The notes under the pieces: model-generated
The model's database searches: none
What the model saw: the letters and a program-made list of their open reading frames with translations, nothing else
What the model was told of the DNA's origin: nothing
NCBI GenBank assembly: GCA_031835245.2
Contig: JAVKOQ020000035.1
Location: forward strand, 248,001-286,237
Origin: Balamuthia mandrillaris
Lineage: Eukaryota
Reading direction: 5' to 3'
Length of the DNA stretch: 38,237 bases
Program-made: the position numbers and the translations under genes
Shown here: positions 21,063 to 38,237 of the stretch, piece by piece
How the letters are laid out: each line of letters opens with the position of its first letter
How positions within the stretch are numbered: position 1 is the stretch's first letter

Positions 21063-21481
21063 GGTGGTGGTTGTGGTCGTTGGTGGTTCCTGTTCACCAT
21101 TTGTTACGATAATTATTGGTGAATTATCGACAATAATCCTGATGGCTTATTTCGGGTCGACACAATCAGAACAGTGTTCCGGTTGACGCCACACGAAAGT
21201 TGGCAGACGCCCTGCTGAAAAGTGGCAGAAAGGGGAGGGAGAACAAATGACCAACCGCTGTGCTCTGCCCCGCTGCCCCGCTGCTAGTAATTATTACGGA
21301 TAGATATCAAGATACCAGCTGCTGCTGCTGCTGCTGCTGCTGCTTCGTCTTGCCCAGTAGCAGAATATTTTCGAGGGCAAGCTTTTGGTCTCTCTACTCC
21401 GCCTGGTGGCTTTTTTTTGGGGGAATTCACGAACTGCTGTTGCTGCTGCGGAGAAAGAACCAACTTTTTTTTTTTTTGACG

Positions 21482-21909
21482 ATGACGAGCTCCACCGTCA
21501 AACTGTGCTTCCGAGTGAACTACAAGACGGAATGGGGTCAAGAGGTGGCGCTTGTGGGAGACCTTCCTAGCCTCGGCCTCTGGAACCCTGTGCAGTCAGT
21601 GAGGTGGGTGGCGCTCTCTTTCAGTGTCCTCTTTCACTGTAAACCTTTTTTTTCCCATAGCTCACCGAACAAAACAACAGGATGAACTGGGTGGCGGAGG
21701 AGGGCGACTGGGAAGGGGAAGTGGAGTTGGAGCCCCATCTCAACATAGAGTATAAATTTGTGGTAGTTAACAGTCACAGCCGTATTGCCGTCCGTTGGGA
21801 GGGTGACCCCAACAGAACCCTTCGTGTGCCGCCCACCAATGCTTTGCTTTCTCATGTTTGGCAGGTGAGTCCCTTGCTCTTCTCTGCAAGCTATTTTTCC
21901 ACTTCTCCA

Positions 21910-21958
<49 letters not shown>

Positions 21959-24900
21959 TACTCTTCTCTCTCTTCTCTCTCTTGTCGTTCTTTTTGGTCT
22001 TCTCCAAACGCTGATGCCTCTCTCTCTCTCTCTCTCTCTCTTGCTCGCTCTCCCTTGGCTGGTTGAACACGAATAGGAAGGGTTGGGCCCCTTCGAAGAA
22101 GTGAAAAGGACGGCAGCCTTCAGCAAGGTCATCTTTAGAGGGAAGAACTCGGACGCCCCGTCCCCAAGCATTGCCCAAGAAGAGCTCAATGAGGCATTGC
22201 GTGAAGGCCTGGAGAAGCGAAACGATGGTCGGTGTTAACAGCTTGTTCAATGCTTGTGTGCTTGTCTTTCTTTGGGGTGAGCTAACAGAAAAACCACTTA
22301 CAGACTCTTCAAGTGTTTTACTTCAACTCAAGTTGCGTCATGACTATGTGGGCAGCTCAAAATCCATTTGCGTTGTTGGAAGTTGTGAGACTCTGGGCTC
22401 CTGGTACCCCAGTCGAGCATTGCCTCTCTCTAGAGTAGGAGAGTCGCTTTGGCAGCTTACCATACTAGTTCCCGAGGATGACATACCTTTCGAGTATAAA
22501 TACATCCTTCGCGACAGTTCTTTCACAGAGGTACCCTGTTTTACTGAAGGAGACTCTTTATTGCTTTGCTTATAACGCTAACACCAAAATTTTTGAATGC
22601 GTAGGTGGCATGGGAGAGTGGTCCCAATAGAGTATTCAATGCATTTCCTGACCAACTAGAGGACATGCCTCTGTTTCTCTTTGATGATGGCTTGTTTAGG
22701 GTAGTTTTTCCCGCTTGTGTGACTGTTCATATGTATGTCCTCTCGACATGCTAACGAATATTTATAACTAACTCCAATTGAACTAGTCCGAGATAGGGCC
22801 ATGGAAAGGAGCTGGCGCTGCTGTACCCGTTTTTTCGCTGCGCAGTGAGAATGGTTTGGGAGTGGGTGAATTTCCCGATATCAAGCTGTTGATTGATTGG
22901 GCCAAGTTGGTGGGCCTTCAGCTCATCCAGCTTTTGCCTGTCAACGATACCACCGCCCATGGCATGTGGTGGGATTCTTATCCTTACAGGTATCTTGGTT
23001 CCCTCTTGTAGTGCTTTACTTCCGCTCCTCTTCTCCTGTACTTATCATTGGCGTCTTGATTCTGTTGCATAGTGCAATCTCCGTGTTTGCCTTGCATCCG
23101 ATTTACCTCAACCTTCAGCAGCTGGACCCGCCTGCGAACGTTCTAAAGAAGATCCAACGACATGTTAAAGCAATGAAAGGAGATGCACCACTTGACTACG
23201 AGGTTCCCTCCCTTTTTCTTTTTCTCCCCTTGTTTTGTTCTCCTTTTTGGCTTATGATACATATTTTTCCGCATTCACAGAGAGTTATGGCCATTAAAAA
23301 CAAATATCTTAAAAGGATATACAGCCATTACAAACAGGCGTGGCTGCATAGCTCCGAACTTAAAGCATTCGTAAAAGAGCACGAGTCATGGCTCCCAGCC
23401 TACGCTCTCTTCTCCTATCTGAAGGAACTCAACTCCACAGCTGACTTTCACAAGTGGCCAAAATACACCACCATCACAGAGGTATAGCAGTTAGTTGATT
23501 TCACCTTTGCAACATTGGCGGGAATTAACGTAGAGGTACAACTTTACAGGAAGTCATCGCTACTCTTACCAGTCCCACAAGTGATATCTATGAGGACAAT
23601 ATTGCTTACCACTACTTTGTGCAATACCATCTTTCCCGGCAGCTTTCCGATGCATCAAGATATGCAGCGGAGAAAGGGGTGGTAATAAAAGGAGACTTGC
23701 CTATTGGTGTGGATCCTCTCAGTGTGGATGCGTGGCTACATCCTCACCTGTTCAACCTTGATAAGCAGACTGGAGCACCACCTGACTATTTTGGTGTGTA
23801 ACCTTTGTTGTCATCCGAGTTACGAATCTTGCTAACCAAAAATCATTATCCTTAACCCTATGGTGTTTAGCCAAGTATGGTCAAAACTGGGGCTTTCCCA
23901 CTTACAACTGGGAAGAAATGGCGAAAGATAATTACAGTTGGTGGCGGCAGCGCCTGCAAGTGCTTTCCAAGTATTTCCATGCGTACGTATCTCAGAGCAT
24001 TAGCTATTTTATTTTTTCGTTTTTTCGTTGTTATTGACCATAACCATTCCAGCTACCGAATCGACCATGTTTTGGGCTTCTTCCGCATTTGGGAGATACC
24101 TGGTCATTGCATTAACGGCCTATTGGGCAGACTGAATCCCAGCATTCCCATTTGGAATTGGGAGTTGGAAGGAAAAGGCGTTTGGGATTTCCGCCGCCTT
24201 ACAGGTAAATTGCATCACTACTGCTGAAACATTATAATGAAGACGAAGAGCTGATCCTTTGTGTTTTGCATAGATCCCTACGTTACTGATGAATTGTTGC
24301 AAACGAGCTTTGGAAAGGAATGGCAGAATATAAAAGCTCGCTTCTTTAATGTGGGTGAAAGTACTCAACGGATTCAATTCAAACCAGAGTATCTAACTGA
24401 AAAAGCCCTTCAGGTAAATGTCCCCTCAGCCCCGTTTGGCTGGGTCTTTAATTATCTGCTTACTCTATTGTATAGGAAGCCTTTGATGAGGACCACAGTC
24501 TTCCTGAAAAGCAGAAAGCGGAAACTTTGAAGAAGTTGTGGGATCTGCTTGGCAATGTAATACTTTTGAGGTATAAAATGTTCTTCCTTTTTTTTTTCTT
24601 TTCCTTCTTCTCCTCCTTCTTCTTTGCCTTTGGTTTTTTCTTTGCTCAATGGATTACTCGCCTCTCACTTCGTTTGGCCCAAACGAATGAAGGGATGAAG
24701 AGGACCCAGAAAGAAAATTCTACCCCCGAGTGGATATGATGACCACATCCTCCTTCGCAGAGTTGCACAATGAAAGTATCCAGAATGCATTACGGGACCT
24801 TTACTGTGACTATTTCTATCGTCGTCAGGACAACGAGTGGAGAAAGGGTGCATTGAGTAAGTGATATTAAACTATTGCTTTTTAGGGCCTCTTACTGTTT

Positions 24901-25882
24901 TACCAGAGAACGCTAACCAAACACTGCTCAGAAAAACTTTCTGTTATGCGCTCCGCCTCAGACATGTTGATTTGTGCTGAAGACCTTGGAATGTTGGCTA
25001 ATTGTGTTCCAAGGGTACTAGAAGAACTTGCTATTCTTGCGTTGCGTGTGCAGCGCATGCCTAAAGACGTCGGGGTCGAGTTTGCTCGTTGTGAAAGCTA
25101 TGAATATCTGAGTGTTTGTACGCCATCCACTCATGATACCTCAACCCTTAGGTACTTTGTCGCTTCTCTCTCTCCTCTCTCTATCTCTCTATCTCTATCT
25201 CTCCTTCATTTGAGTTGCTCATTGAGGTTGCTACTCATAATAGGGGGTGGTGGGAGGAAGATCCAGAAGCCACCCAGCGATACTACAACGATATTCTTGG
25301 CGTGCAGGGCACTGCTCCTAAAGAATGTGAGCCCGCTATTATACACAAGATACTGGACCAACATCTAGCGTCTCCGAGCATGTGGGCCATTTTTGCCGTT
25401 CAAGTAAGCATCTTCTTTCTGGACGTTTGTTTGTGGCGCGCTCTAATACTGCGTTGTTAGGATTTGTTTGCTTTGAAGCAAGAATTGAGAAAGCACAGCC
25501 CACAAGAGGAGCGTATAAACGAGCCAGCAGTTCGTCATCACTATTGGAGGTACATTCTCTGTTCTCTGGCCGGTGTTAACCACAAGCGAGTCACTTATCC
25601 TGCTTCTAACGTTTGCTATTAATTGTGGATAGATATCGCATTCCATTCACATTAGAGGAATTGTGCTTCCAACAGGAGCCACATGAGGACGATGGAGTTA
25701 ACGAGCTCAGCGTGAATCAGCTCCAGCTTGAAGAAGGCGACGAGACAAAGAAGAAGAAAGAAAAGAAGAGAAACTTACTCGTAACCGCAATAACGTCTCC
25801 CTTAGCTTCCAATCCCTTTGCTGACCTAGCACAGCAGCTCAGCTCCCTTATTCAAAAGCATCATAGAGAACCTTGGTTGTGA
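21482..25882 (+). CDS. DPE2: 4-alpha-glucanotransferase DPE2 (two CBM20 domains + GH77), multi-exon
   Basis: CBM20 #1 (FRVNYKTEWGQEVALVGDLPSLGLW..YKFVV..WEGDPNR) and CBM20 #2 (CVVGSCETLGSW..FEYKYI..WESGPNR). GH77 motifs PWKGAGAAVPVFSLRS, QLLPVNDT, IKGDLPIGV, GAPPDYF..GQNWGFPTYNW, and the catalytic YRIDHVLGF, ICAEDLG, STHDT. Confidence 0.93.
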
Positions 25883-27539: not shown

Positions 27540-28325
27540 CTAGTTGTCCTTGACGATTTGTTTTTTGATCAAGCTTTTGGAGGCAAGGTCTGCTGCTGTC
27601 TGTCCTTCCTTGTTGTGTATGGAGGGGTCGGCACCAGCGGCCATGAGGGCCTTCACCGTACCGAGCTTGTTCTTCTTGGCGGCCTCGTGCAGGGGGGTGT
27701 TTCCTCGCTCGTTGAGGGCGTTGACCTGGGCGCCATACTTGAGCAGCAGGTTGAGAGCGTCGGTTTGGCCCCAAAAGGCGGCTGTGTGGAGAGGGGTTTG
27801 GCCGTCGGGGGCCTTGCCTTGCACAGCTGCGCCTTTGGTCAGGAGCAGCTGCATGCCCTCCAGCCAGCCGGTCTGGCTGGCAATGGCGAGTGGGGTGGAG
27901 CCTTGCTCGTTGGCCTCATCAAAGGGAACGCCTTGGTCTATGGCAAACTGAAGGAAGGCAGGATTGCCCAGGGTGGCCGCCTTGTGGCAAATACTCTCGT
28001 CGGCGTCTGTGAGGGCCTTGGGGTCCACCCCTTTCTCTTTGACGAGGTACTGGAGGACCTCCCAGTTGCCGTCCCTAACGGCCAGGTGGAGGGGCAGCCT
28101 CCCTGCCAATGACTTTATGTGAACGTCTGCACCTTTGGCCACGCACAGCTTGAAGCACTCCAACGTGCCGTCGTCGCTGGCAAGGTGGTGCAGCACCGTG
28201 TAACCCTCTATGGGGTCGGCGTAGTTGGGCGGCGCTCCGGCCTCCAACGCCTCCTCCACTCCAGCAAAGTCTCCGTTCTCAGCCGCCGCTAAGAGTTGCT
28301 CTCCCAGTTCCCTCTTGGTAGCCAT
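27540..28325 (-). CDS. Ankyrin-repeat protein (261 aa, intronless CDS)
   Basis: About 7 ANK repeats: GYTVLHHLA, GRLPLHLAV, SICHKAA, GSTPLAIAS, GQTPLHTAA, GNTPLHEAA, GQTAADLA. Confidence 0.92.
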   Translation of the reverse strand: MATKRELGEQLLAAAENGDFAGVEEALEAGAPPNYADPIEGYTVLHHLASDDGTLECFKLCVAKGADVHIKSLAGRLPLHLAVRDGNWEVLQYLVKEKGVDPKALTDADESICHKAATLGNPAFLQFAIDQGVPFDEANEQGSTPLAIASQTGWLEGMQLLLTKGAAVQGKAPDGQTPLHTAAFWGQTDALNLLLKYGAQVNALNERGNTPLHEAAKKNKLGTVKALMAAGADPSIHNKEGQTAADLASKSLIKKQIVKDN

Positions 28326-28924
28326 CTGTTTGCAACCTGCAAAATATATTGGGGCAGGGCGTTACGGTGAGTGGGTGTCAACGACGAGCTGCTGCTCGCC
28401 CAACAAACATCAAAAACAACAGGCTGCCGCACAAATAGCTTACCTTTGCTTGGCGTGTCTTTCTTCCTCTTCTTCTCCTCTTTACACACGGCGAATGAAA
28501 AAACTTATTCCCCCTCCTCCTCCGCTTTCTTCTCTCTTTTCTGGTGCCAAAAGGGATATATAGCAACGCGGATACGGCTATCCGCACACAGCAAATGCCC
28601 CCAGCGTTGGTCGGTCGGTCGGTTGCTAGGTTTGTTTGCCCCACCAGCAGACGGGCAAGAGAAGAGAGAAGAGAGAAGAGAGATGAAGAAGAGCCTTGGG
28701 GAAGAAGACAAGCTACATTACAACAGTTTCGTTTGGTTTATTATTCACAAGTGCTGCTAAAAGCAAGGAAGAGAGAAAGTAATGACACAATAGAATCGTA
28801 GTAGAGGAAAACAACAAAGGTTACAAAGAAGGGTCCAATCCATCCAACCGTGAGCACGGGAGAGCAAGCTTCCCAACAAATCCACACACACTATCGGCAA
28901 ATAAAAACAGAAGGGGTTCTGCAT

Positions 28925-29893
28925 TTAAAAGGCCACGGGCAGAGCACTTCGTCCAGTGGCGGTAGGGAAAGGTGGGTTGCTGTGCTTCTCGCGGAGGGAA
29001 AGGCTTCCCAAGTTGTGGTTAGCCAGAGCCAGCTCTTTCCCTAACATCTCTACGCTAAGGAGGTGGCCAGGCTGCTGCTGCACGTTATCATCACAGGAGG
29101 CAGCATAGAAGAGCTCCCAGGACTTGTTACCGGCAACGGCTTGCAAGAGGGAGGCAATGCACATGACCATGGCTTGGTCTTGGCAAGAGGAAGCCAGGTC
29201 GAGGGGGGTCTCGCCGTCCTCGTTGGGTAACGCAAGGGAGGCTCCAAGGGCCACCAAGAGGCGAACGCAATCCGGGTGCTCCTCACGCACGGCCCAGTGA
29301 AGCGCGGTGTCACCTTCGTGATCTCGGGCGTTGAGGGGGGCGCCGTGTTTGGCCAAGACCTCCACGATCTCCTCGTCACCAACAGCGGCGGCGGCATGGA
29401 GGGCGGTGGCCCCGTCCATGGTAGTCACAAAGACGTTGGCTCCATTTTCCAGCAGAAACTCTACCTTCTCCACCATTCCAAGTTGGGAGGCTCTGTACAA
29501 AGCAGTCTCACCGGCGTAGTTTTGGATATTTACATCTGCGCCGTGGTCCACAAACGCCTCCATAAGCTCCTCCGAACCGTTAGAAGCCACCGCCCACATC
29601 AAAGGGGTGTTGCCTTCCGCGTCCCTAGAGTTTTTGTCCATCCCGTTCTCCAAAAGAAAATTCACTATGTCCACGTTGTTAAGGGAGGCGGCAAAGTGGA
29701 GGGGCCCATAGCCTGCCAGCATCTCATTCTTGCCTCGTCTTACTTCCTCTACCAGCCCTTGTAGCACCTTGAGGTTTCCCTCCCAAGCGGCCCTACACAT
29801 GCCTCCCTGTCCCCTCGTTTCATCCTCTTCCGTATGTAGATGCTGACTGGGTGAGGAAGAAGGGGGATAACTAAACAGAACAGTGGATTGCAT
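28925..29893 (-). CDS. Ankyrin-repeat protein (322 aa, intronless CDS)
   Basis: GYGPLHFAA, GNTPLMWAV, GETALYRAS, GATALHAAA, GDTALHWAV, GETPLDLA, followed by a non-ANK tail. Confidence 0.92.
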   Translation of the reverse strand: MQSTVLFSYPPSSSPSQHLHTEEDETRGQGGMCRAAWEGNLKVLQGLVEEVRRGKNEMLAGYGPLHFAASLNNVDIVNFLLENGMDKNSRDAEGNTPLMWAVASNGSEELMEAFVDHGADVNIQNYAGETALYRASQLGMVEKVEFLLENGANVFVTTMDGATALHAAAAVGDEEIVEVLAKHGAPLNARDHEGDTALHWAVREEHPDCVRLLVALGASLALPNEDGETPLDLASSCQDQAMVMCIASLLQAVAGNKSWELFYAASCDDNVQQQPGHLLSVEMLGKELALANHNLGSLSLREKHSNPPFPTATGRSALPVAF

Positions 29894-30376
29894 GTTGATG
29901 TGGTAGTAGGATGGGGGGGAAGAATATCAAATTACAAGGGGCAGCAACAATCCAAAACGTTTGAAAAACGAAAACGAAAAGGTGGGGTGTGTTGGGTGCT
30001 GCTGGTTGTATAGAAAGTGCAAAATATAAAGAATCTTGCTTGCTCTTTGTTGCTGTTGCTGTTCAAGTGTTATGCGAAAGAGGAAAAACAAAGAAAAAAG
30101 AAATAAAAAGTGGAAAAAGCCAGAAAATAGACAGAGCTGGGCCTAGGAATTAATACAGAAAGGTACCAGGAAAATAACTAGTACCGTGCCGCAACGCAAA
30201 AGGCGGGAACGGTTTCCTCTGAGAAAAACCAGCGAACAGGGGCCGGTAGGATTTCGTGCGGAGTTACGGAAAATTTTCTCCAATAGGAACAATGTTCCAC
30301 AAAAGGAAATGGTGTACAACAACCCTTTATTGTCGACGGACGAAATTTTTCTCGCTTTCTTTAGATCTTATGATCT

Positions 30377-30777
30377 TCAATAAAACTGGGTCATCAACGC
30401 AGGGAACCAGTACTGCGTTTCGGAGGCCTGCTCATCAACCCATGCCATGCCTTCCTGCAGCATTAGGTTCTGTTTTCTTGTTGTTTAGTTCATGGCCACC
30501 CTGCAGGTGTTCAGGGAATAAAAGTAAGCAGTCTGCTAGCTTACCAATACAGCGTCTATCCGGTGTTGAACCCAACCGAGTTCGTTGCGAAGTTGACCCT
30601 GGGTCACATAAAAGGTGTCTTGGGCTAGACTAAGAACAGCACTGTGGTCACTACTGAGCTCGCATGGGACGGATTGTACAATCAACTTGCATCCCACAGG
30701 AAGAATTTTAAAGCCGTTGCCTAATGTATTCAGCTTTTTGATGGCACGCTCGATATCATCCCTGTTGCCAGAACAAC

Positions 30778-30861
<84 letters not shown>

Positions 30862-31643
30862 AAAAGAAGGAAGAAGGGAGATATTTGAGGACTCAAATTT
30901 ACAAATGAAAGGATTACCACGTACCGTGTTATGGTTTGTTGGTGAAGTCCTACTCTCATTTTTTCGAGGTGTTTCTGCAGCTCCGAAAGTTCAATCAGAC
31001 CGCCGTTGGTTGGTCGGGTTCGCAAGCACACATCCACTATTTGCACTGCCAACTCATAGTAAAAATTCCCAACCCCCAACAACTCCGCCCAGAATCCTTT
31101 GTTTGCTTCCGTACGAGAAGGAAGAGGAGAGGGAAGAGGTGCGCAACGGAGAACGCATAACATTGACGGGAGAAAAGAGGGAGAAAGGTAGATTAACACA
31201 AGGAGTGTGGAATAGGAGAAAGCGCTTACAAGCTAATGGGTCAACGCCAATGGAAGCACACATGCTTTGGAACTGCTGGCGGAACTCGGGGTTTTTGTTT
31301 ATCTCTTTCTTGTATTTAGCAGCAAACTTGGCCAAGTTCTCTCGGAACAAGCCAAGTTGTTGTTGCATCTACTTAGACTCTAGTACATAAGCACCCAAAA
31401 CAAACAAACTAATGCGAACATGATGCAAAAGGCAATGGAGACCCATACCCATTTTACTCTCTCTTCTTCCAGTTGGGAGCCCGCCAGGCTAAACGTTTCC
31501 TGTTGGCCGCTTCCGTGTTAAACACGCCTGAGAGGAGAGAGGAGAGAGGAGAGAGGGAGGGCGCAAGGAGGAGGAGAGACCTTGTGTTGGTGCAACCGTT
31601 GCAAGCCGGAAATGCCAACGCCCCTTCTTCTTCGCTGGGCCAT
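30377..31643 (-). CDS. SNF8: ESCRT-II subunit SNF8/VPS22/EAP30, 6 exons
   Basis: [14 protein letters not shown].., [116 protein letters not shown] at 30377. Confidence 0.95.
30784..30858. repeat. (GA)n microsatellite in an SNF8 intron
   Basis: Visible uninterrupted dinucleotide array; many shorter (CT)n/(GA)n tracts occur in other introns. Confidence 0.95.
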
Positions 31644-31855
31644 CCCCGCTTTCCCCCCCCTTTGCTAAGTCTTCACTATTAGGTTGGGGCATTCATGCAC
31701 AAATGGTTACACCACCCCTCAGATGATTTTCGGAGTTTCGGCGTGTTCTGTCCAATCACCCCCTCCCTTTTTAGTCTAAATAGAGAGTCTGGTCGTTTGG
31801 CCAACAGCGCTGAAAGGAAGCAAAGAAAGAGGGAGAGAAGAGGCACCGCCCAAGG

Positions 31856-33155
31856 ATGCAGCGCACTCGAGTTGTGCTAGGTGCCCTGGCATTACTGGTG
31901 CTGTGTAGCGTGACGGCGACGGTTGCACAAGGATTTAGTGCTTGGGCTTATGTGTTCAAGAATGACGATTTGGGGGGAGGGGCCAGAAGGTCTTTGGATG
32001 TTGGAGAGTTTCAGCGAGAAGCGGGTATCAAGCACGACTTCATGAAGGTCATACGTCAACAGAAACAACAGATGAATGAGTTACGCACTTTTGAAGCACA
32101 GCATAGAAATGACGATAACCTCGGCCAACAACTTCGCAATCTTGCCCCTCGGGTGGACCTGTTGGACCCCGAACCAGGTGAGTGAAATATCGTTTTCCCC
32201 ACACTTTTCTCAAAACGCCACGCGGTACCCTCGAGTGGTGGATGTTTCGTAGGCGGACGATCTTATAGTCCTCTGGCATCACGGCATCTATCAGCCTCCC
32301 GCCACCAGTCCTGATTAACATCATAGTCCGAATTTTCTCACATTCGTGAATATATTTCTATCAGGAACCTCCCAGGTAATAGGAAGTGGTATAGGTGGCT
32401 CCCTTCCACTTGCTGGATTCTCCTTCGATCTTGACTTTTCAAGACTGTACACCTTCGCGAGAGCGGGAGTATCACACAAAACCGTCGGACCCCTTGTCAT
32501 GTACAGGCGCCCGGATGAAGTCAGCCCTCTGTGGTTTGAAGGTGGGTTTTCTCTTTGGTTATTTATCGTTCTACCGCCTCTCATCTTATCTCCAATCATT
32601 GTAACAATCTTTTTTCAGCTGCTGCCAACACAGTTGTTGGAGACAGCTTGGAGCCCCCCACTTTCGAGCTTGTTTTATTTGTTCAGTCTTATGCTCAGCA
32701 AACTGCCCGGCTTCCTGTCACAGTGGTTCGCATGCGAAATGCAGTCGTTAAGCACTACACTGCTGATTATAGAGGTTTGGTCACATGTGGCTCTTCTTTT
32801 TCTCTTCTCCGCCCTAACCTCACTTCTTGCTGACCCTCATCCAACCATTATACTTTGTTATTGTTTATCATCCTGATCTGTTTTCCTTGATTGACACCGT
32901 TTCAAACTTGTTGTTACCCTTATAATGGCAGTCGTGGCGGATGCGCAGTCTCCAACTCCTAGATACATCGAGGCCATCACGTTTGATGGTCCTCTCTACG
33001 AATTTGGTTTCCTTGACACCATTGAAGGGTCATGCACTACCACAGCCTGCCCTCCAAACGCTCGGACCGCATTCAACTGCCCCTTTTTCGACGACTACCC
33101 CAGCCTCAGCTATGTTGATCTCCAAGTCCCTGAATGTGGACCTTCTCCTCCTTAA
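31856..33155 (+). CDS. Secreted 292-aa protein with apparent Hcp/TssD (T6SS tube protein)-like core; exons 31856-32177, 32365-32541, 32619-32774, 32932-33155
   Basis: Three phase-1 GT-AG introns give an open 879-nt CDS. Signal peptide MQRTRVVLGALALLVLCSVTATVA. Hcp-like segments: AYVFKNDDLGGGARRSLDV, GSLPLAGFSFDL, GPLVMYRRPDEVSPLWFEAAA, FELVLF, VTVVRMRNAVVKHYT, YIEAITFDGPLYEF. Confidence in the gene model is higher than in the Hcp assignment. Confidence 0.7.
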
Positions 33156-33299: not shown

Positions 33300-34641
33300 T
33301 TAAAGTTTATTTTTGTTAGGACGTTGGATGGTGGCAACTATGACGCAAACATCATCTAGCTTACCCCCAAGATAGCGAAGGCCACGCATTTTGTAACAAT
33401 TTACACCGAAGGGCACCTCCACGTTTGGTTTCTTGGCAATAGCTTGGGCATTCTTTGCGAGCAGTTGGGCTATAGCTTCTTCGCTCATACCTTTTTGCTT
33501 TGCTTGGTTCACCAGATCTAAAATTTGCTTGTCAAACATGTTGTCGAAGAGTCCATCTGTACCCACAATGATAATGTCGCCCTCTTGCATTTCCAGTGTC
33601 GTCTCCACAGCCTTTCTTGGGGAGTCCCCATCAGAACCAAGCTGGTATGGGCAATTGAAGTCTTTACAAGAGGAGAGAGAGAAAGGAGAAAGAAAGAGCG
33701 GAAAATGATGAAGAGAGCAAGAACAAAGTGTTAAATGCTGTGGCAGCAAAAAAAAAAAAAAAAAAGAACGGGAAGAGATACAGTGCTGCTGCTCTTCTGA
33801 ACGGTGAATAATTTGGCTGTCCCGAATGACCATAAAGGAGGAATCGCCCAAATAGGAGGCGTTCAGCACACAATCATCCAACAGCAAAACTAGGGCAGTA
33901 CTTGAACCTGACGAGACAAATCATCCAACAGCAGCAGAGGTCAGGCGATAACACAAAAACAAACAAAAAAATGGCTTGGAGGACTGAAAAAAAAACCTGT
34001 AATGTGCTTGGTCTTCTGCAAAGCCATGTCAAGGATGTCGGTTGTGACTAGCGGTGATTTGTGTTGCTTTGCTTCCTCCTGGTGAAGTCGTTCTTTGCTC
34101 TCCATTAACATTTGTTTGACTTTAATATCAGCTGCTTTGTGTGCCTCTTCCATGAGCTTTCTGGAGAATAGGGCAGGATCGATGTTGTGAGTGGCCCACC
34201 CTCCTACCTGTTGGTTGGGATTAGTGGTTGTGCCGCATTTTAAAAAAAGAAGGGCCAAAATACCCCATCAGCGACGCCAAGACTTTTCTCAGTGTCAGAG
34301 ATGTAGTAAGCATCTTCTCCGCCTTTTTGTGCCTTATCAGGGTGAGGGAGGTTGTAGGCCGCTGCCCGGAAGTGAAAGTTGCAACCAACGCGCGCATGTT
34401 TGGTGGTGGTCTGGCCAGCGGCTCCACTTCCCACACCTCCGCCCGAGGCATGCGTTGTGGAGGCAAAACAACGCCGAGGTTGTAGTTGACACAACGTGTT
34501 GAAGCCCACTCTGAGGTGGGCAAGTGGCGCCCGCCGTTGTCCCGCAATCAGCTTGCAGGTCAGCCCACCACCTCTTGCGGCGGCAGTGGCGAGCAAGACG
34601 GGTCTATGGACGGAGAGATTGGAGCTCCAGCTCATCATCAT
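33300..34641 (-). CDS. PPTC7: PP2C-family phosphatase PTC7 homolog (mitochondrial-type), 4 exons
   Basis: Transit-peptide-like N-terminus, then LPHPDKAQKGGEDAYY..GVADG|VGGW..DPALFSRKLM, GSSTA..LGDSSFMVIR..SEEQQH|YFNCPYQLG, GDIIIVGTDGLFDN, GGKLDDVCVIVA. Confidence 0.93.
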
Positions 34642-34789
34642 CACTCTGGCACAGGCGTGGGTGGGTGGGTAGTTGCAAGAAGACAGAAAGTGAGGCTTCT
34701 CTCTTCCTATTAGGGTGAATAGTTGTTTGAGGCGGCTGGCTTGCTATATTTGGAAAAGTGCTTAGCTTGCTGCTCTTCCTGCTCATAAT

Positions 34790-35537
34790 GTTTATATATT
34801 TTTTTACAACTTTGCTTGCACTGTCTCATCTCTTGTTGTTATAATTCATCTCATTTGCTAGGAACCATGCTTTTCCTCAGTTCAACTTTTATGATTTGAA
34901 GATTTTGAACTCACTGACTACAATTTTCCCTTCAAGTTTCAGTTATAGAATATAATCCATCAGAATAATAATTACACCAGCCTTTATCTTCAGTATTTTT
35001 AATCCATCCTCTAAAGCACATGAGCTCTTTCCACCTTGATCTTCCTAGTGTTCTATGATATGATTCCTTAGTTAAAGCCATATTCCTTTAACCATTTTAT
35101 TCTATGGAGCTCTAGCTTTGTTGCTTATGAACAGCTAATAGTAGTTATAAGAAGTTTATAAATGTTTATCTGCTCTTTATTTGCTCTAAGAGCAACATCA
35201 AACCATATATAAAAAGTAAGCATTGTACATACTTAGTGTACTTTTACTGTTCTTACTCCTTCATCCTCAATCCCTTTTCAATTGTTTACTAAAACAAGTG
35301 AAAAGAGTTGAAAGCTTTTAGACTAGCTTTGCACTATTTGTATCCTCCTTTTTTCTCTATCTTTTTTTTTTACAATCTCCTTTGCTTTTTTTAGATTACT
35401 CCTAAGGATTGATGAAATGCTGACAATATCCACACTTTCAAATTGCTTTTACTGCCCATGATCTGTTTACAACTTTGCTTGCATTGTTTTATCTCTTGTG
35501 CTTTGTTGCATTTCTTTCACTTGACAAAAGCTTTGTA
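34790..35537. mobile_element. Decayed AT-rich, CpG-free repeat-like sequence (possibly the 3' remainder of the LINE relic or another TE)
   Basis: Abrupt compositional switch after the PPTC7 5' region, no CpG dinucleotides, no intact ORF, contiguous with the TE cluster. Confidence 0.4.
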
Positions 35538-35539
35538 TA

Positions 35540-36783
35540 AAGGGTGTCCAATAAATTTCAGTAATTTTCTTTTTCTTCTAAAAGAAAAAAGCAAAATGGA
35601 GAGTAAGTGTGAGGATGAGACCATGACAATCAAGTCTTTACTCAGGTGCAAGCATAGCTCTGGCAGCCCAACTGTAGTTGAGAAACTGTACCTAAAGGGC
35701 AAGAAGCACTTCGACTCAAAATTCAAACTTTATATCTTGATGATGGCCTCATAGCAGCACAGATCAGTCAGCACTTGAGTTGCCCTTCAACTATGGTCCA
35801 CAGATGGATTAACAGCATCAATAAACGTCCATTTACAAACGACAAACCAAGCTCAGGATGACCACAAAAACGTAACCCTTAAGTCTAAAAAAAGATGAAG
35901 AAGAAAACACAAGGAAAGTTCCCCTGCTTTACACACCTCAATTGATTGAAATCAGAGGAATTAAACATTAGCAAGAGCACCATTCATAATGAGCTCAGAG
36001 AAGGGGGAATAATACCACTCCAGCAAGTAAAACAGTAAACATTGACTCCACAATAAAAGCAACAAAGACTTCACTTTGCACAGGCCTACCTCTCTCACAA
36101 CTGAGAAGAAACTCTCATAACTGGCGAGAAACACTTCCCCTTGTTCAGTGCTCCTAACTGCAAAAACAATGTGGGATTATCCTGGTGTGGAGTATGTTTT
36201 TGAGCATGTGAAACACCCTTCTACTTACTGTGTCTAGGGAGGCATTTCCAGCTTTGGAGCCACCCCTCCTATCAGCTACAAAGGAAATGTCAAGACTGAA
36301 ACCTATGTGGACATACTGACCCACGCCCTGCCTAACATCAACAAAATGTTTGGTTTAACCATTTGATGTCTTCAACAAGATGGGGCCTCTGCTTATACAT
36401 CAAAGGCAAGTACAGAATTCATCCATCAAAACTTTGTGATGTTTATTCCCCCAGATGATTGGCCTTTGAACTCTCTAGACTTGTCTTTGATACAAAACCT
36501 CTGGGCCATCATCAGTGACAAAGTTCAAGCTCAGAACCCAAAGACACTCAAGGAACTGCAAGAAGCTATGAATGCTGCATGGGATGAAATTTCTTTGGCT
36601 CAGATAAAAAGGCTGGTTTCTTTCATCCCTTCTCATCTTCAATCATGTAATGAAAACAATGGGAGCTGGACGTATTAATACCTGACTGTTGTAGTTTTTT
36701 TTGCACTCTATTTTATTAAAAAAAGTTTACTTGAGGCTTAGTAACTTTTATTTAACATGTACCACAATTTTTTGAACACCCTT
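35540..36783 (+). mobile_element. Defective Tc1/mariner (IS630-Tc1-mariner) DNA transposon, about 1.24 kb, with TIRs and TA target duplication
   Basis: Left TA|AAGGGTGTCCAATAAATT and right AATTTTTTGAACACCCTT|TA (16/18 inverted match). Internal HTH-like remnant (AAQISQHLSCPSTMVHRWI..G*PQK) and DDE_3-type C-terminus QQDGASAYTSK..WPLNSLDLSLIQNLW..LKELQEAMNAAWDEI..NGSWTY. Multiple stops and frameshifts. Confidence 0.9.
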
Positions 36784-36785
36784 TA

Positions 36786-38237
36786 GTCATATGATTAGCT
36801 TTTTAACTTGTTCTTCATTTCAGTTGTTTATACTCTGGATATCAAAGTTATTTTCCCAAAGAGTTGAACATCTTAACAGGAGGTGTTCTACTGTTTCCTC
36901 CTCAGCATATAGAGCACATACTATCCTCTTCAGATTGTTGAACAATTCTCTAACTATGAGCAGCTGTATACCTTCCTTGGTGATTACTGAGCTATGTCCA
37001 ATTGAATACCTTTCACTAGTTTAGAAGTTCTACCACAGCTATGCTTTTATAAAATGTCTTCTTTCATTTTGTCTTTCTCTTTCCTGTCTTGGTTCTTTGC
37101 TTTGGTTCTAATAGTGATGTTAGCAGTTAGAGCCACATTTAGTCTTCTCTGAAGCTTAAAAGGATCGCTGGTCACCACTGCCAAATCATCTGCAAACAAC
37201 AAGCAAATATTTCCTTTTCCTCTGCCGTAGCTTTCTTGCCACCACATCAATCAATATACACATTGAACAAGAAGGGAGACAAAACTCCTCCTTGCTTAAC
37301 TCTTCTTTCTACCCGAAATTCCTCAGAGAGTTGCCCATTCACATGAATGACACTTGTCATCCCACAGTACAACTCTGCAATGATGCCCACTGCTGCCTCT
37401 TCTGCTTCTCTTTTGTGCAATGTCCTTGCCAGTATGTTATGGTCAAGCATGTCGTATGCCTTGCTGATATTCAACAGAGCAAATATAAGTGAATTCTTTG
37501 CTTCTCTTCATCAGGCATTTCTTCAACTGCCATACTTGATCCATGACTCCTCTTCCTTTTCTAAATCTGCCCTGGCAATCACTTATTCACCCATGCTCTC
37601 TTGCTTGTATGTTCAACTGCACCAAGATAGCTCCCTCAAACACCTTGGCTGCTTTGCATAGGAGGGTAATACCTCTACAGTATGCTGGGTTCTGGGGATC
37701 TCCTGCCTTATACAAGGGGATAACCATCCCGTGTTCCCACTCCTTGGTTCTCAATGGCCTTGATCAGTGTCCAAGTTGTGTTTTGCACATGTTTACCTCC
37801 ATACTTCATCATTTCCCCATCGATATTATCCACTTCAGCTGCTTTGCCCATCCTCAATCTTTTCTTCCATGCAAGATTAAAGCTCTTTTTCTTAAGCCAG
37901 TTGCTGCCAGACCAAGACAGTCCTTCTGGACCTGCTTCCTCTTGATGCAAGCTCCCAATGGAAGAATCCTTCCTTCCCAGCTTTGCCCAATGTTCCTTCA
38001 AGGCTGCCATGCTACCATGGTGCTTAATAACTGCTTTGGTCTCTGCTTTATGCTTTGCCACTATCCTCCACATGTTGCCAATCCATTTCTGCATTTCCTT
38101 GATGTTCTCTTGTCTCTTTCACTTCATCCAGTCCTTCTTTTCTTAATAAAGGAGGAACCCAGGTGAAGTATAGTATAACAAGTAGTTTTTGTTACTATAG
38201 TATCTATGTTAACAAAAACTAGGTTATAGATAATAGT
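36786..38237 (-). mobile_element. Degenerate non-LTR retrotransposon (LINE) ORF2: reverse transcriptase plus C-terminal zinc-knuckle remnant
   Basis: Fragments GKAAEVDNIDGEMMKYGG, NISKAYDMLDH, RVKQGGVLSPFLFNVYID and LLFADDLAVV (RT motifs), plus VCALYAEEETVEHLLLRC (CCHC-type, about 36866-36920). Frameshifted and stop-ridden. Confidence 0.88.

Follow-up and report, generated by a model that had tools for sequence, protein, structure and literature searches.

A putative secreted homologue of the type VI secretion tube protein Hcp encoded by an intron-containing gene of Balamuthia mandrillaris

The window analyzed here is a stretch of 38,237 nucleotides from the amoeba Balamuthia mandrillaris (assembly GCA_031835245.2, contig JAVKOQ020000035.1, positions 248,001 to 286,237 of the forward strand), and all positions below are counted from its first letter. 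On the forward strand, at 31856..33155, it contains a gene whose spliced product of 292 amino acids (P0001) belongs to a small protein family related to Hcp, the hallmark of the bacterial type VI secretion system (T6SS). As judged from sequence comparison, the core of this family (residues 145-251) is very likely homologous to Hcp. The gene appears domesticated: it has spliceosomal introns, host neighbors and host-level DNA depth, and some transcription was observed. P0001 is an Hcp homologue that stands outside the canonical family, with scores below the curated cut-off and a predicted leader that does not agree with a cytoplasmic location. Its Hcp homology is no evidence for a secretion system. 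With about even chances, the product would be a secreted Hcp-fold ring serving as surface or wall scaffold, and not an injection tube.

The link to Hcp is transitive: it runs via relatives, and P0001 alone has no database match to Hcp. In a HMMER search of 1.84 billion representative proteins (E <=0.001), four matches were obtained, namely P0001 itself, P0005, P0006 and P0007, with E values of 7e-9 to 1e-4 for the relatives. P0008 is the full-length form of P0005. The relatives are 24-31% identical. On a profile built from P0006, P0007 and P0008, P0001 itself reaches 84.9 bits. In Pfam, PF05638 is the sole match of P0005 (E 0.005) and P0006 (E 0.0005), with 17.6 and 20.9 bits against a cut-off of 23.5, and TIGR03344 is the only NCBIfam match of P0006 (E 0.02) and P0007 (E 0.03), with 14-15 bits against a cut-off of 58.9. 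On a profile of 25 bacterial Hcps the relatives reached 18.2, 15.2 and 8.8 bits, and none of the 500 shuffles made of each scored as high. When the family profile was aligned to bacterial Hcp with hhalign, a match of 96.2% was found (pairwise E 2.6e-9, 90 columns, residues 145-251). Its score of 63.2 compares with a maximum of 15.9 in 100 column shuffles and with 12.4 for the reversed alignment.

The tail-tube proteins of phage T4 (gp19) and of extracellular contractile injection systems (eCIS; Afp1/5), grouped in PF06841, share the fold superfamily of Hcp. The family differs from these tubes, as its profile matched 26 gp19/eCIS proteins at 3.8%, versus 96.2% for Hcp, and it occupies a separate tree branch: the four family rows form one clade (support 100/99) that groups with Hcp across the split from gp19. 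Against the PDB, the best of 3 rows was Hcp3 of P. aeruginosa (3HE1, E 0.35). A blind six-frame search of 401 proteobacterial genomes returned Hcp genes at 8 of the 19 places with E <=1, including 7 of the first 8; the best place had an E value of 0.006 and none was significant alone. The ESM Atlas gave Hcp at 0.80 for the whole of P0001, to be taken as a lead only, and at 0.90 for residues 105-250, where 28 of the 30 matches were PF05638. No family member had a Pfam match to the TssD of Bacteroidota (PF17642). The Hcp-like identity proposed in a preliminary description of this DNA, made from the letters alone, therefore stands as remote homology of residues 145-251, whereas P0001 by itself matches neither PF05638 nor TIGR03344.

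The supported match (residues 145-251 of the spliced product, 32475..33029) comprises strand 3, the D-x-x-S-P helix, strands 4-6 and the I-E-x-I-x-F strand. Compared to Hcp/TssD (PF05638, TIGR03344; 3HE1; A. baumannii Hcp), the Balamuthia protein is colinear from strand 3 via the helix to the I-E-x-I-x-F strand. It differs by its three introns, the predicted signal peptide, ~80 extra N-terminal residues, a Cys-rich tail and scores below the curated cut-offs, and no T6SS genes were seen among the scanned open reading frames (ORFs) of the window. Outside the supported core the placement is more tentative. Strand 2 was aligned at residues 119-131 in global alignments only. A candidate strand 1 (residues ~28-53, 31937..32014) was placed by MAFFT directly behind the signal peptide. 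Residues 28-49 are the best ungapped match of residues 26-125 to any of the 25 Hcp starts and beat 60 of 60 shuffles (33 versus a maximum of 31), but the profile test was at chance, as was P0008. If residues 28-53 are strand 1, an insert of ~80 residues follows; otherwise this part of the protein is a pro-region. By eye, though without statistical support, the invariant N-C-x-F coincides in position with the last strand of Hcp. The order of Hcp motifs described earlier is thus statistically backed in residues 145-251, and its first N-terminal motif weakly so. The reading of the first residues after the signal peptide as an enterobacterial Hcp start narrowly survives the shuffles and fails in the profile test and in P0008.

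The gene consists of four exons and three phase-1 GT-AG introns, none with a length that is a multiple of three, which together leave the frame of 292 amino acids open. Exon 1 (31856..32177, codons 1-107) encodes the predicted signal peptide, the possible first Hcp strand and a charged helical insert or pro-region. The likely Hcp strand 2, its loop, strand 3 and the helix motif D-x-x-S-P-x-(W/F)-F are found in exon 2 (32365..32541, codons 108-167), and the Hcp-like strands 4-6 in exon 3 (32619..32774, codons 167-219). Exon 4 (32932..33155, codons 219-292 and the stop) contains the Hcp-like I-E-x-I-x-F strand followed by the family-specific tail. Introns 1, 2 and 3 measure 187 (32178..32364), 77 (32542..32618) and 157 nucleotides (32775..32931), respectively. 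The open frame is weak evidence for this splice model because 1027 GT/AG donor/acceptor combinations also yield one. The model is supported by a contig of sequencing run X1 (guessed to be RNA), by the NCBI model and by the relatives. The X1 contig omits exactly the 77 nucleotides of intron 2, and of the 12 letters at its loose end ahead of exon 2, 11 agree with the end of exon 1. By a search with exon 2 it was found that P0001 is, letter for letter, the NCBI hypothetical protein QOT17_005605 of B. mandrillaris. The 90% cluster of P0001 holds four members, all from B. mandrillaris (the identical protein on three contigs, two copies with 99% and 95% identity, and a model in which intron 3 is read through). 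All three relatives carry on in the frame of exon 4 past the position of intron 3. The earlier claim that three phase-1 introns splice a frame of 292 amino acids was hence borne out by the identical NCBI model and the skipped intron 2. Of the junctions proposed for a check by RNA sequencing, that of intron 2 was seen directly and that of intron 1 by the loose end, and the intron 3 junction was bridged by no read or contig in the runs examined.

P0006 contains two inserts, each starting with a Gly at the codon that is split in Balamuthia by intron 2 (167) or intron 3 (219). This Gly is the residue expected from read-through of a phase-1 intron, as in P0002, the NCBI model on another contig. When both inserts were removed, the Hcp score of P0006 rose from 15.2 to 28.6 bits, which was reached by 1 of 300 random removals. 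Judging from the protein, P0006 most likely stems from a eukaryotic contig whose gene was called without splicing out the introns, and it shares the positions of introns 2 and 3 with the Balamuthia gene at 29-31% identity. Because the inserts sit exactly at introns 2 and 3, the sequences support an old eukaryotic family of Hcp-like proteins with a new Cys-rich tail. P0005/P0008 and P0007 are found on contigs of 1.4 and 1.2 kb, which are transcript-sized, and no further relative turned up in the viral contigs, metagenome contigs, plasmids or phages searched. Most probably, a single ancient transfer brought the gene from a bacterium into eukaryotes, ahead of the gain of the two shared introns. 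The donor could be a canonical Hcp that later gained a leader, or an already exported bacterial Hcp; the two trees gave the family no firm place among the Hcps. The preliminary view of a horizontally acquired, domesticated tube protein thus agrees with the Hcp homology, the host-style introns and the age of the family, while the phylogeny that it called for put the clade on the Hcp side without singling out a donor.

A bacterial contaminant or a dead recent insertion is extremely improbable. Such an origin would fit the low expression and the finding that no contig among those examined joins the gene to its neighbors. Against it stand the three spliceosomal introns, one of which was seen spliced, and a DNA depth equal to that of the flanks: DNA contig X4 covers 31766-33050 including the introns, with an intron depth of 7 versus 4-7 on the flanks. 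In addition, the frame is intact in copies of 95-99% identity, and intron positions are shared with a relative of 29-31% identity. That contamination is unlikely, as had been concluded earlier from the introns, could be maintained on the same ground and on that of the DNA depth.

The N-terminus of P0001 is predicted to be a signal peptide (residues 1 to ~24/25, 31856..31930). Residues 3-24 form the sole strongly hydrophobic stretch of the protein, with a 13-residue mean hydropathy of 2.81 versus <=1.37 elsewhere, in line with the earlier assignment. The leader is present in P0001 and P0008, the two family members with an apparently whole N-terminus. In these two proteins 75-90 extra residues precede strand 2, and dibasic motifs in the N-terminal region could be convertase sites. 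In P0001, residues ~49-96 are charged and predicted to be helical, and strands are predicted for residues ~110-250. At the other end, the tail (33033..33152) holds C253, C258, C268, C287 and the invariant N-C-x-F and is absent from bacterial Hcp. Two disulfides are suggested, 253-258 and 268-287, because P0007 retains only the second pair (C268 and C287) of the four cysteines. The product would thus in all likelihood enter the endoplasmic reticulum, be secreted and form disulfides in its tail.

A signal peptide on an Hcp is not restricted to this family, and the statement of the preliminary description that bacterial Hcp has none does not hold in general. Two lone Hcps, L202:1883-2566 (genome G236) and L217:1348-2016 (genome G483), have a Sec-type leader directly before strand 1. 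Such genes were found in 2 of 301 genomes of their class (alphaproteobacterial; one query). TssC gave no match in these two genomes, which are possibly incomplete, and matches in two control genomes. The two proteins resemble the Balamuthia protein in that the Hcp domain lies directly behind an export signal and outside a T6SS cluster; they differ in being bacterial, with a near-canonical Hcp sequence and without the Cys tail. L202 lacks the usual Hcp helix motif. On the family profile L202 and L217 score low (-2.7 and 5.6 bits), and neither tree joins them as sisters with the eukaryotic clade. Yet grouping L202 with that clade was not rejected (approximately unbiased test, p-AU 0.37). Since exported bacterial Hcps exist, the transferred gene may already have carried its signal peptide. 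No description of such lone, leader-bearing bacterial Hcps was found in the literature, as far as result listings and the openings of abstracts go. Among the bacterial sequences, L203:1909-2475 (G211, a 1.1-Mb genome) is a very divergent Hcp-like gene of a small-genome proteobacterium, with 23.3 bits in Pfam.

The points that weigh against the proposed reading concern the homology, the transcripts and the ring. P0001 alone gave no match in Pfam, NCBIfam, PHROGs or the PDB sequences. On the profile of 25 bacterial Hcps it scored -0.1 bits, a value that 5 of 500 shuffles reached, and in hhalign it matched Hcp at 1.9%. P0007 had no Pfam match, P0005 and P0008 had no NCBIfam match, and all library matches of the relatives to Hcp fall under the curated cut-offs. 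In segment tests, Hcp strands 1 and 2 and the last strand were not placed above chance on their own. Both AlphaFold2 models have a predicted local distance difference test (pLDDT) of ~40 and the fold searches were uninformative, so that the check by monomer model and fold search suggested at the outset did not help; the order of the strands agrees with the beta-barrel and single helix of Hcp. The eukaryotic origin of P0005, P0007 and P0008 is one that we infer, and P0002 reads through intron 3. Expression of the gene is low in the three RNA runs, of each of which 3-5% was read: a few reads fall on exon 1 in X5 and none on the coding part in X6 and X7. The evidence for transcription consists of one contig of a guessed RNA run and these few reads. 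Secretion and the scaffold role are proposals drawn from the sequence. A chance or convergent similarity, with P0001 as an unrelated secreted beta protein, would account for the missing direct match and the lack of a confident fold. It is nevertheless very improbable: several controlled methods converge on one family and one stretch of residues, and the Hcp score of P0006 almost doubles once its intron-like inserts are taken out.

As to the ring, the accessible text on A. baumannii Hcp reports that the Hcp helix contacts the neighboring subunit and that hexamers persist despite low identity (PMC4469607). In the family, this helix falls in the best-kept stretch. Its conservation is no proof of a ring, since the helix makes contacts within its own subunit as well, and its partner in the ring contact, the last Hcp strand, is unplaced in the sequence. 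Because the helix is kept, but these two points stand against it, a hexameric ring like that of Hcp (80/40 A) is held to be no more and no less probable than its absence. In one Hcp the rings are reported to stack through the loop that joins strands 2 and 3, and native Hcp alone forms no tubes in vitro (PMC4650826). This loop is short in P0001, ~30 residues longer in P0007 and ~90 residues longer in P0008. Tube stacking is unlikely because these inserts are large and variable, and the absence of both stacking and contraction would be expected with good confidence. At residues ~140-215 of P0008, where Hcp has its stacking loop, a long acidic insert is found. The ring would then act as scaffold on the surface or the cyst wall, a tentative assignment that takes the largest single share among the roles considered.

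Alternatively, the secreted protein may be derived from Hcp and no longer form a ring, but serve for binding as a monomer or low-order assembly, in a lectin-like, adhesive or signaling role, with the tail and the pro-region covering the old ring interface. This is unlikely, though of some weight. The last Hcp strand appears replaced by, or hidden in, the Cys-rich tail, as it was left unplaced by the profile test, and the 75-90 extra residues before strand 2 as well as an identity to Hcp of 9-16% point in the same direction. However, in all four proteins conservation is highest in the helix motif and in the I-E-x-I-x-F strand, low identity does not keep Hcps from being hexameric, and N-C-x-F would occupy the position of the last strand, if the placement by eye is followed.

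A secreted Hcp ring could also have a function other than a scaffold. It may be a lumen carrier for peptides of the amoeba, or serve as a decoy by trapping bacterial type VI effectors at the surface or inside phagosomes. Hcp is reported to bind small effectors at the inner face of its ring and to stabilize them there, and the type VI effector gene dae2 was domesticated for defense in ticks (PMC4469607 and 10.1101/2020.04.10.036376, as far as their accessible text goes). Yet the same text on Hcp describes cargo binding as specific and the inner face as poorly conserved, and no partner gene was seen near the Hcp-like gene in the 30 ORFs and 1195 segments of the window that were scanned. A carrier or decoy is thus considered improbable.

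It is highly unlikely that the protein is part of a eukaryotic phage-tail-like machine, with stacked tubes and with spike or sheath relatives elsewhere in the genome. What argues for such a machine is the Hcp homology itself. The stacking loop, however, varies by up to ~90 residues among the members, and the failure of native Hcp to form tubes on its own speaks against it as well. Neither a T6SS nor a phage family was found among the 30 window ORFs given to Pfam (the window has >90 frames of >=100 amino acids), and the 1195 window segments contained no second Hcp-like frame. The earlier remark that no VgrG, PAAR or sheath gene is visible accordingly holds for the 30 scanned ORFs, which are part of the window only. 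A bolder and quite unlikely version would see in the protein a secreted, disulfide-locked ring or short tube within a eukaryotic surface or delivery structure derived from a phage tail, whose spike or sheath relatives are still to be found; it would be the eukaryotic branch of an undescribed, T6SS-independent extracellular use of Hcp.

No eukaryotic Hcp appeared in the literature searched, which was covered as listings and abstract openings and lay mostly outside subscription journals; the lone match for the term was a hybrid cluster protein (PMC13632651). The main text of the Balamuthia annotation paper contains neither Hcp nor secretion (PMC10471605, by term search), and the accessible part of a 2026 review of gene transfer in Acanthamoeba does not mention Hcp (PMC13305018). 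The closest parallel is Dae2 of ticks, likewise a type VI gene that was transferred to eukaryotes and kept (10.1101/2020.04.10.036376, in its accessible text). Dae2 is a toxin enzyme working alone, whereas the Balamuthia protein is of a structural tube subunit type, with no catalytic role known. The dae genes, too, are said (by Chou et al. in 2015) to have gained introns and signal peptides. The type VI genes known to have been domesticated encode toxin enzymes rather than structural parts. If true, the intron-bearing secreted Hcp family of an amoeba would be the first case of a eukaryote that keeps a structural part of a phage-tail machine. Together with the exported bacterial Hcps, it raises the question of what job the Hcp fold has outside the cell without its machine. 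The protein is predicted to be secreted and has no detected relative in humans or animals; as it comes from a human pathogen that is poorly understood, it may also be of use as a diagnostic marker.

Upstream of the Hcp-like gene lie the exons of SNF8/Vps22 (EAP30; 30539..31368, reverse strand), and downstream a PP2C/SpoIIE-type phosphatase (33300..34743, reverse strand), which is presumably PPTC7-like. The placement between SNF8 and PPTC7 was therefore corroborated for SNF8 and for the phosphatase type. Long GA microsatellites, at which short-read contigs break, are found in an SNF8 intron (30773-30873) and between SNF8 and the Hcp-like gene (31528-31559). Further upstream, two ankyrin-repeat genes with long uninterrupted frames adjoin each other on the reverse strand (27540-28361 and 28925-29926). 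In RNA run X5 the second has the highest coverage of all genes in the stretch, and the nearby ankyrin gene is ~10x deeper than the Hcp-like gene. A multi-exon 4-alpha-glucanotransferase (GH77) with a CBM20 domain, DPE2-like, is encoded at 21251-25460 on the forward strand. Short dispersed repeats are located at 34803-34835 and 28657-28693, where many contigs and reads match and run off and the depth is raised. The end of the window, 35400-38200, is AT-rich (GC 0.35-0.43). A forward frame at 36367-36678 there is presumably a piece of a Tc1/mariner transposase, and reverse-strand frames at 37047-37507 look, again by their motifs, like reverse-transcriptase pieces of a long interspersed nuclear element (LINE).
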